IMG/VR virus record: IMGVR_UViG_2537562231_000018
Source of the DNA: a virus
Lineage: Duplodnaviria; Heunggongvirae; Uroviricota; Caudoviricetes
Reading direction: 5' to 3' (one strand)
DNA length: 24,218 nt
Shown here: positions 10,122-20,952 of the stretch, piece by piece
Layout: each line of letters begins with the position of its first letter
How positions within the stretch are numbered: position 1 is the first letter of the stretch
Notes under the pieces: model-generated
Seen by the model: the letters and a program-made list of their open reading frames with translations, nothing else
What the model was told of the DNA's origin: nothing
Database searches by the model: none
Translations under genes and position numbers: made by a program

Positions 10122-10277
10122 TTACTTCTCAGATTCGTAAGCTGTGAAGACAGCGACCTCCGTCTGGCCGGTTCGGATTCGTACCTCGCAGAGGTCTTTC
10201 CTCGTTACCAGTACCGTTACAACGACGGTAATACAGATGACGATCAGGGCGATTAGCATCGCCTTTTGCTGCTTCAT
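10122..10277 (-). CDS. hok: Hok/Gef-family type I toxin (HokD/RelF-like)
   Basis: MKQQKAMLIALIVICITVVVTVLVTRKDLCEVRIRTGQTEVAVFTAYESEK, 51 aa, near-identical in pattern to E. coli Hok/Gef proteins. The tracker ORF is extended upstream in frame to 10334. Confidence 0.85.
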   Translation of the reverse strand: MKQQKAMLIALIVICITVVVTVLVTRKDLCEVRIRTGQTEVAVFTAYESEK

Positions 10278-10325
10278 AGCCTGCTGCTCCTTGCCTTTCG
10301 GCGCGTAAGAGGCTAATCTAAGTGT

Positions 10326-10398
10326 GCAAGTCATAGATATGGCCTCAGATTAATGTTAAGCGTCCTGCAAGACGCATAATGTTAACTGGGGCTTTTCT
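10326..10398 (+). ncRNA. sok: candidate Sok antisense RNA (position and promoter inferred)
   Basis: Plus-strand promoter TTGCCT (10291..10296) -17 bp- TAATCT (10314..10319) faces away from hok and overlaps the hok leader; downstream hairpin GCGTCCTGCAAGACGC and a T-rich stretch. Exact ends not determinable by eye. Confidence 0.3.
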
Positions 10399-10527
10399 CT
10401 GTCTGCCTTACGTCGGCATGCCCGAGGCAGACAGCCTCAAGCACCCGCAGCAATTCTACTTAACTCTCGCTTTACCGCAAACCGTTTTACCCGATATGGG
10501 AATGCCCATATCGCAATGAATTCAGTT

Positions 10528-12629: not shown

Positions 12630-13034
12630 ATGAAATCATTAACCGCAGTGCGTAAAAAAAGCCCTAATTATCCCGTTGAGTTCAAAATCAAAATGGTTGA
12701 ACTCTCGCATCGACCAGAGATCTCCGTAGCGCAACTCGCTCGTGAGCATGGGATCAACGATAATTTGCTGTTCAAGTGGCGCCAGTACTGGCGCGAAGGA
12801 AAACTACGTCCTCCTTCAACAACAGAAAACAACGTGCCTGAGCTGCTCCCGATAACACTTGATGCCGAAGATGTTGTCCCTACAACCTCCCCCCGGTCAC
12901 AACCTGTAGCTGCTGCGACACCTGAATCACTCAATATCAGCTGTGAAGTGACGTTCCGGCACGGATCACTCCGTCTGAATGGTGCCATCAGCGAAAATAT
13001 CCTGAACCTGCTGATACGGGAGCTCAAACGTTGA
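12630..13034 (+). CDS. IS66-family accessory protein (orfA/TnpA)
   Basis: 134 aa; EFKIKMVELSHRPEISVAQLAREHGINDNLLFKWRQYW HTH region typical of IS66 orfA. Confidence 0.85.
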   Translation: MKSLTAVRKKSPNYPVEFKIKMVELSHRPEISVAQLAREHGINDNLLFKWRQYWREGKLRPPSTTENNVPELLPITLDAEDVVPTTSPRSQPVAAATPESLNISCEVTFRHGSLRLNGAISENILNLLIRELKR

Positions 13035-13378
13035 TCCCATTACCATCAGGGACAAAGATCTGGCTGGTCGCTGGCATCACCGATATGAGAAACGGCTTCA
13101 ACGGCCTGGCGGCAAAGGTGCAGACGACGCTGAAAGACGATCCGATGTCAGGTCACGTTTTTATCTTCCGTGGGCGTAATGGCAGTCAGGTAAAGCTCCT
13201 CTGGTCTACCGGCGATGGACTGTGTCTGCTGACCAAACGGCTGGAGCGCGGCCGCTTCGCCTGGCCGTCAGCCCGGGATGGCAAAGTGTTCCTCACACCG
13301 GCACAGCTGGCGATGCTGCTGGAAGGTATCGACTGGCGGCAGCCTAAAAGACTGCTTACGTCCCTGACTATGTTGTAA
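13031..13378 (+). CDS. IS66-family orfB (TnpB)
   Basis: 115 aa; KIWLVAGITDMRNGFNGLAAKV..HVFIFRGRNG..KLLWSTGDGLCLLTKRLE, the characteristic IS66 orfB pattern; ATGA overlap with orfA. Confidence 0.85.
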   Translation: MIPLPSGTKIWLVAGITDMRNGFNGLAAKVQTTLKDDPMSGHVFIFRGRNGSQVKLLWSTGDGLCLLTKRLERGRFAWPSARDGKVFLTPAQLAMLLEGIDWRQPKRLLTSLTML

Positions 13379-13426
13379 GCCTCTTTATCCTGGTCGACGC
13401 TGAATGAGCCTGGTAATATACCCGGT

Positions 13427-14965
13427 ATGAGCAGCTCACTTCCTGACGATATCAATGCACTGAAACGTCTCCTTGCCGAACAGGAGGCGCTGAACCGTGC
13501 CCTGCAGGAAAAGCTGAACGAGCGTGAACGCGAAATAGACCATCTGCAGGCACAGCTGGATAAGCTGCGCCGGATGAACTTCGGCAGCCGCTCGGAAAAA
13601 GTCTCCCGTCGTATCGCACAGATGGAAGCTGACCTGAAGGCACTTCAGAAAGAAAGTGATACCCTTACCGGTCGGGTTGACGACCCGGCCGTGCAGCGCC
13701 CGCTGCGTCAAACCCGCACCCGCAAACCGTTCCCCGAATCACTCCCCCGCGATGAAAAACGGCTGCTGCCGGCAGCGTCATGCTGCCCGGAATGTGGAGG
13801 CTCGCTGAGCTATCTGGGTGAGGATGCCGCCGAACAGCTGGAGCTGATGCGCAGCGCCTTCCGGGTTATCCGGACTGTACGTGAAAAGCATGCCTGTACT
13901 CAGTGCGATGCCATCGTGCAGGCCCCCGCGCCTTCACGGCCCATCGAGCGGGGTATCGCAGGACCGGGGCTGCTGGCCCGCGTGCTGATCTCAAAGTATG
14001 CAGAGCACACCCCGCTGTACCGCCAGTCTGAAATGTACGGCCGCCAGGGCGTGGAGCTGAGTCGTTCACTGCTGTCGGGCTGGGTGGATGCATGCTGCCG
14101 GCTACTGTCACCGCTGGAAGAAGCGCTTCAGGACTATGTGCTGACTGACGGTAAGCTCCATGCTGATGACACGCCTGTCCCGGTGCTGTTGCCAGGCAAT
14201 AAGAAAACGAAGACCGGGCGGTTATGGACCTACGTTCGTGACGACCGTAACGCCGGGTCAACGCTGGCGCCGGCGGTGTGGTTCGCTTACAGCCCGGACA
14301 GAAAAGGCATCCATCCGCAGACCCATCTTGCGGGGTTCAGTGGTGTACTGCAGGCGGATGCATACGCCGGGTTCAACGAGCTGTACCGGGATGGCCGGAT
14401 AACGGAAGCCGCTTGTTGGGCTCACGCCCGCCGTAAAATCCACGATGTGCACGTTCGCACCCCGTCAGCCCTGACGGAGGAAGCGCTGAAACGGATCGGC
14501 GAACTGTACGCCATCGAGGCAGAGATAAGGGGAATGACGGCGGAGCAGCGCCTTGCCGAACGTCAGTTGAAAACGAAACCGCTGCTGAAATCCCTGGAAA
14601 GCTGGCTGCGTGAAAAGATGAAAACCCTGTCGCGACACTCAGAACTGGCGAAAGCGTTCGCATACGCCCTGAACCAGTGGCCGGCGCTGACGTACTATGC
14701 AGATGATGGCTGGGCTGAGGCGGACAATAACATCGCTGAAAATGCGTTGCGGATGGTCAGTCTGGGCCGCAAAAACTACCTGTTCTTCGGTTCGGATCAT
14801 GGAGGAGAGCGGGGAGCGCTGCTGTACAGCCTGATCGGGACGTGCAAACTGAACGGAGTGGAGCCAGAAAGCTACCTCCGCTATGTCCTTGACGTCATAG
14901 CCGACTGGCCGATAAACCGGGTCGGCGAACTGCTCCCCTGGCGCGTAGCACTGCCGACTGAATAA
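13427..14965 (+). CDS. IS66-family transposase (orfC/TnpC), intact
   Basis: 512 aa; N-terminal coiled coil, CCPECGG..C.QC zinc motif, [27 protein letters not shown] and downstream catalytic region. Confidence 0.9.
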
Positions 14966-17132: not shown

Positions 17133-17528
17133 ATGGATTTTGCAACTATCACAAGTAGCGTTGTGTTGAGTGCGTGTGTTGCTGGCGTGGTTTCGCTGGT
17201 TAATGGTGCCTGGCAACGCAAATCGGAACGAACCATTGAAGCGCAACGCCGGGCTGCTGAAGCCAGAGCAAAAATAAGAGAAATGGCTCTCACCCTCGCA
17301 TTGAAAGAATGGGAGCTCCACCAAACCATATCGAAGGCAAAGGGGTATGGTGTCAGCGGCCCAGAAGTTTACGTCTTTCGATACTTTCGTATGCTCAACC
17401 TGATGGAGGAAGACAAATTCACGATTGAAAATCTCAGACTGATCCAGTACGACTCCATGTGTGCTGTTGCAGCAATTCAGGCAGAGATCGAGCGATATCG
17501 GGAGAAAAACGGCCTCCCGATGCCATAA
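17133..17528 (+). CDS. hypothetical membrane-anchored coiled-coil protein, oriented against the surrounding early operon
   Basis: 131 aa; N-terminal TM helix (ITSSVVLSACVAGVVSLVNGAW) then a charged helical region (RKSERTIEAQRRAAEARAKIREMALTLALKEWELHQ..); own -10 and strong SD. Confidence 0.55.
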   Translation: MDFATITSSVVLSACVAGVVSLVNGAWQRKSERTIEAQRRAAEARAKIREMALTLALKEWELHQTISKAKGYGVSGPEVYVFRYFRMLNLMEEDKFTIENLRLIQYDSMCAVAAIQAEIERYREKNGLPMP

Positions 17529-17762: not shown

Positions 17763-18188
17763 TTAGTGCATCACCACGGCATTTCCTGCAGGGCCACCAC
17801 GGTTCATCTGATTGAAACCGGCAATCGCCACTGCGACAAAATCATCAGCGTCTCTCACCAGTCGTTCCCGCGTCTCCACCAGCTCCCGAAAATAGGCTGA
17901 ACTGTGGCTGCGCATTCGGGCCACCAGCAAAGGTGGCATTGCCTTTTCGATCGCTGGTAACAACGCCTGAATTTTTTCAACAGCATCAGGGGTGTCTTTC
18001 TCTACCCAGCGGAAAATTTTCTGTGTATTGCGAGCCAGGGCTTCCGGATGGCTGTCGTCATACAGTTCAGGAAACGTTATACCCAACTCAAAATAAGCCT
18101 GGGTTATTCCAGCTGCTGGAACTTTTTCGCCATCAGGACGCGCCCAGGCATTCATCGCCATGCGGATGTGTTCATGCTTGATTTTCAT
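17763..18188 (-). CDS. ydaT: YdaT-like protein (CII-position gene of Rac-type immunity regions)
   Basis: 141 aa starting MKIKHEHIRMAMNAWARPDGEKVP, the YdaT-family start as I recall it; directly downstream of and overlapping the YdaS-like gene. Confidence 0.6.
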   Translation of the reverse strand: MKIKHEHIRMAMNAWARPDGEKVPAAGITQAYFELGITFPELYDDSHPEALARNTQKIFRWVEKDTPDAVEKIQALLPAIEKAMPPLLVARMRSHSSAYFRELVETRERLVRDADDFVAVAIAGFNQMNRGGPAGNAVVMH

Positions 18189-18453
18189 GAATCAAGCTCC
18201 TAGAAAGTGGTTGTGTTAACGTTTTGGTATCTTCCAGCTCGGGCCAAATATTCATCCAATCAAAAGGCCTTAGTTGCTGACGTGTAACTTCACCATTACT
18301 GGCTCGCTCAATAAGGACACATAACGATGCCCCTAACACTTGACCTTTACTCAATGCCTTTCTTAGATAACCGATGCTGGTACCACACTCGCATGCAAAC
18401 ATACGCTGTTCATCTGACGAAAGAGAATTGAGAAATATTCTTAATTCTTCCAT
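18172..18453 (-). CDS. ydaS: YdaS-like HTH protein (Cro-position regulator)
   Basis: 93 aa; HTH-like segment QRMFACECGTSIGYLRKALSKGQ; AAGGAG SD; divergent from the repressor across an operator-bearing intergenic region. Confidence 0.6.
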   Translation of the reverse strand: MEELRIFLNSLSSDEQRMFACECGTSIGYLRKALSKGQVLGASLCVLIERASNGEVTRQQLRPFDWMNIWPELEDTKTLTQPLSRSLIHENQA

Positions 18454-18482
18454 AGCTACTCCTTAGTAAACACAGCAAAGAA

Positions 18483-18518
18483 TACCCACAGGTAAACAAA
18501 AGTAAATACCCACAGGTT
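18483..18518. promoter_or_regulatory. OR-like operator pair: TACCCACAGGTA (18483..18494) and TACCCACAGGTT (18507..18518), overlapping divergent promoters
   Basis: Two near-palindromic 12-mers 24 bp apart between the YdaS-like and repressor genes; the same motif recurs twice downstream of the repressor gene. Confidence 0.6.
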
Positions 18519-18553
18519 GTTTACCTTGCAGTAATCGCATCTATTATTTACCT

Positions 18554-18972
18554 ATGGACAAATATGAATTTAGACGACAGCAACTCATCAAAATTCGTGA
18601 TGAGAAATGCGATGGTAAAGCGGTTAACGTGGCCAGAAAGATCGGGCGCGAGCCTTCTTATGTATCAAGAATGTTGTACCCAGAGGGGAAAAAGGGAAAA
18701 AACGGATCGCTGATGATATGGTGGAGATTATCGAAGAGTCCTTTGGGTTACCCCGGGGATGGATGGATGGTATCGTTTCATCATCAACGAACACAGCCTC
18801 CAGTTATGAAACAAGGGTTCTAACGCCACGACAACGTATTTTTTTAGATCTCTTAGACGAACTGCCAGAAAGTGAAGCGGATAACTTATTAAAAACTCTT
18901 GAAGAGAAAAAACAGTATTACAATATGATCTACGAAGAAATCCGTAAAAAGAAAGCACAAAACGCATCATAG
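18554..18972 (+). CDS. RacR/cI-type repressor candidate, split by an apparent frameshift at the A6 run 18697..18702
   Basis: ORF 18554..18823 carries an N-terminal HTH (GKAVNVARKIGREPSYVSRML); ORF 18718..18972 continues in the +2 frame. One extra A in the A6 run would join them into a roughly 140-aa protein. The ATG has no SD and sits 7 nt after a TATTAT -10, so the mRNA would be leaderless like lambda cI. Confidence 0.5.
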
Positions 18973-19015
18973 CTCACCAAACAACTAGTCACCAGTTAAG
19001 ACACCGCAAAAAAGT

Positions 19016-19052
19016 TACCCATGGGTATTTACTTTTTAAATACCTATGGGTA
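19016..19052. promoter_or_regulatory. OL-like operator pair: TACCCATGGGTA (19016..19027) and TACCTATGGGTA (19041..19052)
   Basis: Perfect and near-perfect 12-bp palindromes of the same family as the 18483/18507 sites, 25 bp apart, upstream of the rightward small-gene cluster. Confidence 0.55.
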
Positions 19053-19238
19053 TCCTTCTTTTCATACCAACCCACCCCGCCCCACAGAATGCAGGGCAAT
19101 ACTTCGAGTTACCAGGCAGTGGTCAGGGGTTAAGTAGCCAGCCCGAGGCGTAAGAACATGACGGCAGGGTTCAACTTTAATAACTATGCAGCAGGTTTTT
19201 GTTCCGCTACCCCGGCGTTAAGGGGAAATGAGGTCAGC

Positions 19239-19394
19239 ATGGATACTATCGATCTTGGCAACAACGAATCTCTGGTGTACGGCGTATTTCCAAACCAGGA
19301 CGGCACGTTCACCGCAATGACGTATACCAAAAGCAAAACGTTTAAAACCGAAAATGGTGCCCGTCGCTGGCTGGAAAGAAACTCAGGTGAGTGA
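19239..19394 (+). CDS. hypothetical small protein (51 aa; YdaF/YdaG-like by position)
   Basis: MDTIDLGNNESLVYGVFPNQDGTFTAMTYTKSKTFKTENGARRWLERNSGE with GAGGT SD; tracker ORF extends upstream to 19158. Confidence 0.4.
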   Translation: MDTIDLGNNESLVYGVFPNQDGTFTAMTYTKSKTFKTENGARRWLERNSGE

Positions 19395-19395
19395 T

Positions 19396-19524
19396 ATGGA
19401 TTTCGACACAATCATGGAAAAGGCTTACGAAGAATACTTCGAAGGCCTTGCCGAAGGCGAAGAAGCTCTCAGCTTCAGTGAGTTTAAACAGGCGCTTTCC
19501 AGTTCGGCAAAATCTAACGGCTGA
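19396..19524 (+). CDS. hypothetical small acidic protein (42 aa)
   Basis: MDFDTIMEKAYEEYFEGLAEGEEALSFSEFKQALSSSAKSNG; GGTGA SD; start 1 nt after the previous stop. The overlapping 69-aa GTG ORF 19391..19600 is in another frame and looks non-coding. Confidence 0.35.
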   Translation: MDFDTIMEKAYEEYFEGLAEGEEALSFSEFKQALSSSAKSNG

Positions 19525-19553
19525 TAAGCGAAACAGCACCGCGAGGAATCAGT

Positions 19554-19772
19554 ATGCAGAAACGAGAACCCGTCATCATCGCGCCAGACTATACCGATGA
19601 TGAACTTTATGAGTGGATGCGCCAGAAAATTAATGCAGCGCAGGATCTGAAATGGGCTAATGAAGCCAGGGCTAAGCAGGCTGAAAATCTGTCCGCTCTG
19701 GAGCAGGATATCACCAGGCTGGAAAAAGCAGCGGCATTAAGCATTGCCAGAATGATTACATACCCGCGTTAA
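19554..19772 (+). CDS. hypothetical small protein (72 aa)
   Basis: GAGGAA SD upstream of the ATG; charged helical composition; same size class as Kil-type proteins in Rac but not verified. Confidence 0.4.
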   Translation: MQKREPVIIAPDYTDDELYEWMRQKINAAQDLKWANEARAKQAENLSALEQDITRLEKAAALSIARMITYPR

Positions 19773-20174
19773 TAGCTAACCAACGAAGCTAAGGTTGGTA
19801 ATTAAGGAGTTCTCCACGGGTGAGGTGGAGTGCGTACGCCGGACACGGGTGAGCATCCGGCACTGACAGTTTACTGAAAGGATATTTCCATGAAAAGTCA
19901 GACCATAACGCGAAAGCGCACGGCGAGGTAGCTGGTTCATAGATAACCTGTCGTTAAATTTTCGTCGACCGTGCGCTTCCGGTTGTGGCACTCCGCGAAA
20001 TGGCGCGGCGGTAAGTATGGCGGGGTTATTCCTTCCCCGTTGAGGACATCGGGTTGTCAGGTTGACCATACGCTTAAGTGACAACCCCGCTGCAACGCCC
20101 TCTGTTATCAATTTTCTGGTGACGTTTGGCGGTATCAGTTTTACTCCGTGGCTGCTCTGCCGCCCTTTTTAAAG

Positions 20175-20339: not shown

Positions 20340-20441
20340 ATGGAAACGTTATTACCAAACGTTAATACGTCTGAAGGTTGTTTTGAAATTGGTGTCACTA
20401 TCAGTAACCCTGTATTTACTGAAGATGCCATTAACAAGAGA
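20340..20441 (+). pseudogene. 5' portion (34 codons) of a small gene interrupted by IS66 copy 2; 3' portion at 22982..23068
   Basis: METLLPNVNTSEGCFEIGVTISNPVFTEDAINKR then the IS; joining across the IS and one copy of the target duplication restores a 62-codon ORF whose TGA overlaps the ATG of the downstream gene at 23065. Confidence 0.45.
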
Positions 20442-20526
20442 GTAAGCGTAAACTGACCGCCGTATGTAGCCATCAGACGAGAATTGGTAACTTAGACGCC
20501 CATCTGATATAGACGGACATCTAAGT

Positions 20527-20952
20527 ATGGAATTACAGGACTGGCGAAAAGAACCTCGTAAAAACTATTCGAATGAATTCAAACTTCGTATGGTGGAACT
20601 GGCATCACAACCTGGAGCTTGTGTTGCACAGATTGCACGTGAAAATGGCGTCAATGATAATGTTATTTTCAAATGGCTCAGGCTCTGGCAGAACGAAGGG
20701 CGTGTTTCGCGGCGTCTTCCGGTAACGACCTCTTCTGACACTGGCGTTGAATTATTACCTGTAGAAATAACGCCGGATGAGCAGAAAGAACCTGTGGCGG
20801 CCATTGCGCCGTCTTTATCCACTTCCACTCAGACCAGAGTCAGTGCCAGTTCCTGCAAGGTGGAATTCCGTCACGGTAACATGACGCTGGAAAATCCATC
20901 GCCAGAGCTGCTCACAGTGTTGATCCGTGAACTGACCGGGAGGGGAAGATGA
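20527..20952 (+). CDS. IS66-family accessory protein (orfA), copy 2
   Basis: 141 aa; EFKLRMVELASQPGACVAQIARENGVNDNVIFKWLRLW. Confidence 0.85.
   Translation: MELQDWRKEPRKNYSNEFKLRMVELASQPGACVAQIARENGVNDNVIFKWLRLWQNEGRVSRRLPVTTSSDTGVELLPVEITPDEQKEPVAAIAPSLSTSTQTRVSASSCKVEFRHGNMTLENPSPELLTVLIRELTGRGR

Follow-up and report, generated by a model that had tools for sequence, protein, structure and literature searches.

Predicted TACC-N4-GGTA operators in the probable immunity switch of a lambdoid, Qin-like prophage

The 24,218-bp viral sequence IMGVR_UViG_2537562231_000018 (Caudoviricetes), referred to here over its whole length as the window, contains around a frameshifted repressor gene a region that very probably constitutes the on/off immunity (lysis-lysogeny) control of a lambdoid, Qin-like prophage, in which the repressor and a Cro analogue would share operators of the form TACC-N4-GGTA. 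Its placement among lambdoid-class switches, as a hetero-immune member, is well supported, and the kind of system itself is not new; the overall design is the ordinary textbook lambdoid one, and what is new is an operator code that can be read from the DNA. No paper with these operator sequences turned up in the library that was searched. The two genes and the five sites, three in an upstream cluster comparable to the right operator (OR) and two in a downstream cluster comparable to the left operator (OL), are as follows.

18554-18972, plus strand: repressor gene (CI analogue), frameshifted; the intact protein has 139 residues (WP_000362153.1).
18172-18453, minus strand: YdaS-like Cro analogue, 93 residues, first gene of the rightward promoter (PR); PHROG 35, E = 5e-23.
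18483-18494: O1 (OR1-like), TACCCACAGGTA; centre at about -16.5 from the predicted PR start and about -65.5 from the start of the repressor maintenance promoter (PRM).
18507-18518: O2 (OR2-like), TACCCACAGGTT; centre at about -41.5 from the predicted PRM start.
18522-18533: O3 (OR3-like), TACCTTGCAGTA; 15 bp from O2, overlapping the PRM -35, at a position conserved in relatives.
19016-19027: OL distal site, TACCCATGGGTA; a perfect palindrome that abuts the -35 of the leftward-type promoter (PL).
19041-19052: OL proximal site, TACCTATGGGTA; lies over the spacer of PL and 2 nt at the start of its -10.

A first-pass annotation of this DNA had described four 12-bp sites, and a motif scan of the window recovered all of them exactly where they had been placed, with the centre-to-centre spacings that had been claimed (24 bp for the 18483/18507 pair and 25 bp for the 19016/19041 pair) and with the downstream palindrome at 19016-19027 being indeed perfect. 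The four sites stand, and the total does not: there are five, O3 having been overlooked, as were the broken reading frame of the repressor and the hairpin formed by the downstream sites and their spacer. The upstream sites fall within the 100 bp that separate the YdaS-like gene from the repressor ATG (18554), the downstream pair begins 44 bp past the repressor stop (18972), and the distance from OR to OL is about 530 bp. In the common Escherichia coli allele, O3 is an exact copy of the motif, TACCTTGCGGTA. A candidate sixth site over the repressor start codon, TACCTATGGACA (18549-18560), was set aside as probably a chance resemblance, because it carries two core mismatches and is not conserved in relatives.

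The operator core is the 12-bp TACC-N4-GGTA, with TACCYR-YRGGTA as its fuller form. Exact copies occur in the window only at 18483, 19016 and 19041; the similar density elsewhere that the first-pass annotation had named as a possible refutation is not seen. When one mismatch at most was allowed and both strands were searched, the window gave 7 strand-matches for 0.75 expected, a number reached by none of 100 shuffles; the sole match of this kind outside the sites, with one mismatch at 18003 inside ydaT, was taken as chance.

The strongest support comes from relatives, for which one genome per species was scanned; 44 loci from Enterobacterales, Neisseria, Burkholderiales, Xanthomonadales and other groups encode the DNA-binding domain of the repressor, exact motifs being counted in 43 of them (257,747 bp) and site positions being tabulated in 45 loci. 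This search, proposed earlier as a check, returned 113 exact copies of TACC-N4-GGTA for about 3.9 expected, distributed as 59 at OR, 53 downstream and 1 elsewhere, and with 112 of the 113 at OR or downstream, at the same offsets around the repressor genes, the OR/OL layout claimed for the window has strong backing. In the large majority of the tabulated loci the sites stand at about -73 (O1), -47/-48 (O2) and -33 (O3) from the repressor ATG, and the spacings of 25 bp between O1 and O2 and of 15 bp between O2 and O3 recur likewise. The downstream copies are mostly pairs 25-26 bp apart, and a pair 23-27 bp apart is present in 27/45 screened loci. TACC and GGTA are fixed across relatives, the central 4 bp (mostly Y-R-Y-R) and the flanks being variable, and the right half-site of O2 is degenerate across the family (GGTT, GGGA or GGCC). 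Phage mEp043 may serve as an example: upstream of its cI gene are TACCTGTAGGTA, TACCCATAGGTT and TACCGGCAGGTA, and downstream, at the putative PL annotated in the record, TACCTATAGGTA and TACCTGTAGGTA lie 25 bp apart.

Two variations within the family may be recorded here. In loci of enterobacteria with S24-type repressors, a split palindrome, TTACCTG-N10-CAGGTAA, occurs about 20-45 bp upstream of the OL pair (locus L002, which is mEp043, at 3553-3576, and L004, L012, L013, L019 and L022); it may represent a third OL element whose spacer has widened, and it is absent from the window. In five Klebsiella loci (L007, L009, L010, L011 and L014), O2 is missing and 'ttgctatatttt' stands in its place, a variant OR architecture; the repressors of these loci are probably not leaderless, because they have a 9-residue N-terminal extension.

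The motif has no copies in phage Tritos, in the Qin prophage of E. coli K-12 or in the 2013C-4830 prophage, which has the same YdaT; all three have another DNA-binding domain, and the absence from such hetero-immune relatives with the same flanking genes bears out the claim of a non-lambda operator. The homology between the window and Tritos resumes immediately past the OL pair, and since it restarts right behind the pair, the pair can be regarded as part of the immunity module. The YdaS-like partner proposed earlier is also a frequent companion, the divergent Cro gene being homologous in 30/43 loci and travelling with the repressor domain and the operators. Enrichment, conserved positions, co-inheritance with the DNA-binding domain and Cro, absence in hetero-immune relatives and the Tritos boundary together give strong evidence, at the level of sequence, that this repressor/Cro pair has the motif as its operator.

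It is very improbable that the motif is bound only by the YdaS-like Cro or by a host factor and not by the repressor, or that it is a chance repeat. A chance origin is ruled out by the window shuffles and the 43-locus count. Both the Cro gene and the repressor domain are conserved together with the sites, and for this reason the comparison alone cannot separate the repressor from Cro as the binder; nevertheless, the motif follows the N-terminal domain of the repressor across two C-terminal architectures and several bacterial orders. To our knowledge, CI and Cro use the same operators in every characterised lambdoid switch. In the case of PaaR2 and YdaS of prophage CP-933P, the footprints of the two proteins overlap (PMC8630535).

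Assignment of the sites to a repressor/Cro pair agrees with their positions on the predicted promoters. The promoter and terminator scan covered 18300-19300 and gave a single promoter-like match, the PRM-like one, whose -35 overlaps O3; PR and PL were read from the sequence.

18520-18547, plus strand: predicted PRM-like promoter, TTTACC-16-TATTAT; start at about 18554, the A of the ATG.
18501-18506, minus strand: predicted PR -35, TTTACT; the common allele reads TTGACT, with C at 18504 where the window has A.
18479-18484, minus strand: predicted PR -10, TATTCT; this hexamer opens with the final two bases of O1.
19028-19056, plus strand: predicted PL, TTTACT-17-TATCCT; start at about 19063; counterpart of dicBp of Qin.

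In the window, PR reads TTTACT-16-TATTCT from 18506 to 18479 on the minus strand, O1 lying over its spacer and -10 and O2 abutting its -35; each OR site overlaps or abuts the predicted PR or PRM hexamers, and a 100-bp gap with three such sites is in keeping with a lambdoid switch, as is a second operator cluster, which lies past the repressor gene on a promoter cassette resembling PR. The PR/PL cassette is family-wide, the distal operator being followed immediately by the -35 (TTGACn) and, after about 7 nt, by the proximal operator, the final TA of which provides the first two bases of the -10. The downstream 'OL' pair of the first-pass annotation holds as an operator pair, to which it has to be added that it overlaps the promoter of the ydfABC-dicF-dicB operon; on this sequence evidence PL is the likely counterpart of the Qin dicBp.

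The repressor start had been noted as leaderless in appearance, and this impression is strengthened: the -10 TATTAT ends 6 nt before the ATG, which puts the predicted transcript start on the A of this codon, and a Shine-Dalgarno sequence is lacking. In 23/33 relatives a hexamer resembling a -10 lies 6-7 nt before the ATG, other offsets being almost never seen, and this conserved geometry supports the prediction that the repressor mRNA is leaderless.

In the regulatory scheme that this map suggests, the repressor and the YdaS-like Cro analogue would bind the same palindromic operators as dimers. O1 would lie over the spacer and -10 of PR, from which ydaS-ydaT and the replication, Q and lysis genes are transcribed; O2, at about -41.5 from the repressor promoter, would be placed as OR2 is in lambda, where CI bound there activates PRM; and O3, presumably weaker and placed over the -35 of the repressor promoter, would permit autorepression. 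At the other side, the OL operators, 25 bp apart, would flank the -35 of the leftward-type early promoter PL and extend over its spacer and -10; PL would drive ydfABC-dicF-dicB. The binding itself, activation from O2, cooperative action of sites 24-25 bp apart, a loop joining OR and OL, and the induction route are inferences; as the repressor has no S24 domain, the trigger would be an antirepressor or Cro bistability and not SOS self-cleavage.

The downstream pair has a second property that bears on its function, listed here as one feature.

19016-19062, plus strand: hairpin of the distal OL site (OL1), the AT-palindromic spacer and the proximal OL site (OL2), with a 16-bp perfect stem, followed by TCCTTCTTTT; possible intrinsic terminator of the repressor transcript.

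That the pair is primarily or additionally an intrinsic terminator of the repressor transcript, with its resemblance to the OR sites being secondary, seems rather doubtful, though it deserves to be weighed. The hairpin is the sole terminator-like match in the range scanned, the OL region folds at -25 kcal/mol (z -4.5), and no hairpin among the 27 loci possessing an OL pair is stronger than this one, which reaches -21.4 kcal/mol and has 7 T among the 10 nt that follow it; moreover, no other terminator lies between the repressor stop (18972) and 19016, and mEp043, L021 and L043 have a separate GC-rich one upstream of OL. Nevertheless, the 16-bp stem has only 5 G-C pairs, and the T run of the tail (UCCUUCUUUU) is broken by a C. 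Most relatives also have pairs with a spacing of 25-26 bp, their hairpins being weak (-5 to -17 kcal/mol) and lacking a T-rich tail, and the OL sites coincide exactly with -35 and -10 hexamers in the same arrangement as those of PR. Because the paired sites are kept where the hairpin is weak, the operator role is the conserved one. The two roles are compatible, and in the E. coli version the hairpin may, judging from its fold and tail, also terminate the repressor transcript; the terminator as sole explanation fails.

The repressor itself is a domain mosaic, in which an XRE-like helix-turn-helix DNA-binding domain of the mEp043 type is joined by a flexible linker to a tail of the DicA type, without an autocleavage domain. 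The protein matches PHROG 5736 (transcriptional regulator) at E = 6e-70, and no Pfam model, S24 included, even at E = 1. According to a homology search, the first ~75 residues, MDKYE..RR..L..IRD..GK...AR.I.REPSYVSRMLYPEGK.GKKRIADDM...IE..F.LPRGWMD, are common to many proteins; those sharing them are of 220-240 residues, contain Peptidase_S24 and are roughly 55-83% identical, one such protein being the cI product of phage mEp043, whose DNA-binding domain is 65% identical. The repressor thus has the mEp043 signature MDKYE...REPSYVSRMLY...LPRGWMD together with operators at about -73, -47 and -33. Residues ~86-136 resemble the C-terminus of Qin DicA (33% identity over 46 residues, E = 2e-7), the NCBIfam model for DicA (PRK09706) matches over residues 86-136 at E = 1.9e-5, under the family cut-off, and the same residues also resemble CI of phage Tritos, whose helix-turn-helix domain differs. 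With its 139 residues, its DicA-like tail and its lack of a protease, the repressor resembles a DicA-type protein (about 135-140 residues). The resemblance does not extend to the N-terminus: DicA and Tritos CI match Pfam HTH_3 (DicA at E = 1e-16), which the repressor does not, and BLASTP gave no alignment between the N-termini of DicA and the repressor.

The AlphaFold2 model (predicted local distance difference test score, pLDDT, 84) has helices at 3-18, 23-30, 34-40 and 54-63, a disordered linker at 73-91 and a helical hairpin at 92-138. Foldseek searches with the model returned XRE-type folds (C-proteins, HigA, ClgR) and phage Rep, the top match being Rep of Salmonella phage SPC32H (5d50) at E = 1.6e-3; when the PDB was searched by sequence, the repressor had no significant match. 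As there is no S24 domain, the C-terminus being instead a DicA-like helical hairpin, the repressor should, as judged from its sequence, not be RecA-cleavable nor undergo SOS self-cleavage.

These observations lead to a broader proposal, to which we give slightly less than even chances: that the repressor domain, the YdaS-like Cro and the TACC-N4-GGTA set form a portable immunity-specificity cassette, uncharacterised and invisible to Pfam, in which the same code would be used from Neisseria and Burkholderiales to E. coli and the C-terminal sensors would be swappable (S24, or a DicA-like tail presumably responsive to antirepressors), so that one code would be wired to different induction signals, the OL pair of E. 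coli being also shaped into a repressor terminator. The analysis provides a concrete operator code and a promoter map for a repressor that RefSeq calls 'hypothetical protein' (WP_000362153.1) and points to one DNA-binding specificity common to SOS-cleavable and non-cleavable repressors, which is relevant to whether prophages and phages such as mEp043 are cross-immune; the understanding of lambdoid switches is unchanged, because the design is the textbook one.

Whether the switch works in the window is a separate matter, which depends on one position of the repressor gene.

18697-18702, plus strand: A6 run, site of a 1-base deletion; A7 in the intact gene, from alignment to near-identical E. 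coli loci.

The deletion splits the repressor into overlapping open reading frames at 18554-18823 (89 aa) and 18718-18972 (84 aa). The gene is carried by 822 of 5426 complete E. coli genomes (~15%), and among these 822 there are 710 with exactly A7, 2 with A6 and none with A8; since A6 is so rare and A8 absent in about 820 complete genomes, the run finds no support as a frequent site of phase variation. Four database proteins (P0005, P0010, P0016 and P0019) appear to be further frameshift alleles at or near the A tract. Relative to the nearest allele, that of strain SK1144, the window differs at only three positions in 640 bp: the A6 frameshift, an extra A at 19008-19013 (before OL) and a C-to-A change at 18504, which turns the PR -35 from TTGACT, present in every close allele, into TTTACT, a change of the down type. 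The exact 95-bp OR sequence of the window is found in no complete genome.

That the operators are real and the switch is a dead relic here, with a repressor pseudogene in a decaying cryptic prophage, is a reading for which the chances are about even. The A6 allele truncates the repressor after residue 49 of its DNA-binding domain, the PR -35 has undergone the down-type change, dicB is interrupted by an insertion sequence (IS) element of the IS66 family, and a second, unrelated IS66-family element is located at 12630-14965. Set against this, two of the three differences are changes of homopolymer length (18697-18702 and 19008-19013), a typical pattern of sequencing errors, the A6 allele is very rare (2/822 genomes), and YdaS, YdaT and all five sites are intact. 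Because two of the three differences are of this homopolymer kind, the frameshift may mark a real pseudogene or be a sequencing error; together with the cutting of dicB by the IS it makes the switch of the window probably a decayed copy.

Several points weigh against assigning a repressor/Cro switch with shared operators to this region. O2 and O3 both depart from the core motif; the predicted PR and PL each match the consensus at 8 of 12 positions, under the threshold of the promoter scan; the related loci were found via repressor homology, so that the conservation is partly shared ancestry; the window contains no Rem-like antirepressor or rem homologue; and, as the repressor is frameshifted here, the sites may be unoccupied and the switch may not work in this copy.

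Among characterised systems, the DicA/DicC/dicBp region of the Qin prophage (E. coli K-12) has in common with the window a short repressor without S24, a divergent Cro-like gene, a repressor with a homologous C-terminal stretch of ~50 residues and a ydfA-ydfB-ydfC-dicF-dicB operon under a promoter just past the repressor gene. In that prophage, operators have been reported at both intergenic regions, and dicBp is repressed by DicA and relieved by the Rem antirepressor (PMC10448788), DicA-class repressors in general being relieved by small antirepressors (PMC3121763; PMC10448788). The differences concern the N-terminus of DicA, which is of the HTH_3 type and unrelated at the sequence level to the DNA-binding domain of the window repressor, the absence of TACC-N4-GGTA from K-12 Qin, the Cro, which is YdaS-like here and not DicC, and rem, which the window does not contain.

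The PaaR2/YdaS/YdaT region of CP-933P (E. coli O157:H7) is alike in having a repressor and divergent YdaS and YdaT in the same order, with an intergenic region of 97 bp there and ~100 bp here, a near-identical YdaT and an exact OM operator; paaR2 has been demonstrated experimentally to be leaderless, and OR as well as a PL/OL region have been described (PMC8630535). It is unlike the window in that its operator is an 18-bp palindrome with the consensus GTTTAGTAA, and such operators are not enriched here (5 matches versus 3.7 expected). PaaR2 starts with MQKKE and the window repressor with MDKYE, and downstream there is a paaA2-parE2 toxin-antitoxin there and ydfABC here; on these features the repressor is a different one from PaaR2.

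Phage mEp043 resembles the window in its switch elements, with 65% identity in the N-terminal domain and 73% in Cro, three OR and two OL sites (25 bp apart) at the same offsets and the same leaderless promoter geometry; it differs in its CI, of 228 aa with Peptidase_S24 and presumably RecA-cleavable, in place of the DicA-like tail here, and in its PL, which drives the N antiterminator and not ydfABC-dicFB. With lambda itself, the window shares divergent PR/PRM, three operators with an adjacent-site spacing of ~24 bp, a site near -42 of the maintenance promoter and a second cluster at PL downstream of the repressor gene; unlike lambda, with its 17-bp operators and OL1-3, it has 12-bp operators of unrelated sequence, 15 bp between O2 and O3, only two OL sites and no S24 domain. 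The lambda cI mRNA is leaderless, which is textbook knowledge (cited in PMC8630535). GfoR/GfhR of the Gifsy prophages and the Rep-Ant system of SPC32H (PDB 5d50) also have no autocleavage domain, SPC32H Rep being the best structural match to the model, although a weak one with ~20% sequence identity.

The neighbouring genes place the switch in its prophage context.

17763-18188, minus strand: YdaT-family gene (CII analogue), second in the rightward PR operon; Pfam YdaT_toxin, E = 7e-10.
18178-18195: YdaT OM operator, TTGATTTTCATGAATCAA, at the ydaS stop/ydaT start junction; no mismatch to TTGATT-N6-AATCAA.
19239-19772, plus strand: homologues of ydfA (DUF1391, E = 2e-28), ydfB and ydfC, first genes of the PL operon; from the RefSeq annotation of near-identical loci.
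20114-20165, plus strand: DicF small RNA (sRNA); Rfam RF00039, 75 bits.
20340-20456, plus strand: dicB remnant of 34 codons, METLLPNVNTSEGCFEIGVTISNPVFTEDAINKR then VSVN and a stop, truncated by the IS66-family insertion.

The YdaS-like protein matches Pfam YdaS_toxin at 25.8 bits, under the cut-off. The YdaT-family gene belongs to PHROG 163 (CII-like), and near-identical proteins are those of PDB 3c4r and of 8bt1, the YdaT of CP-933P (E = 1.9e-79), for which a TTGATT-N6-AATCAA site has been footprinted (PMC9986795); the exact YdaT operator implies, on sequence grounds, that a PRE/YdaT module of the CP-933P type is joined to a different repressor/Cro module. On the other side of the repressor gene, the order ydfABC-dicF-dicB is that of the Qin operon, with DicF present and dicB truncated here; the IS66 accessory genes begin at 20527, after the dicB remnant, TnpA/TnpB are annotated in relatives, and the dicB::IS66 junction is shared by no complete E. 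coli genome.

The second IS66-family element (12630-14965), with HTH_Tnp_1, TnpB_IS66 and a DDE transposase, lies in the early-right region, and a composite transposon made of both elements was discarded, as there is no nucleotide similarity between them. Between the replication gene and ydaT, and against the direction of the PR operon, a 131-aa open reading frame with a hydrophobic N-terminus (17133-17528, plus strand) matches no Pfam model; it may be a moron. Rfam matches elsewhere in the window are the sok antitoxin RNA (10272-10446), adjoining a hokD-like region, and the sRNA STnc100 (6487-6659), which sit in the late and early-right regions of the prophage.

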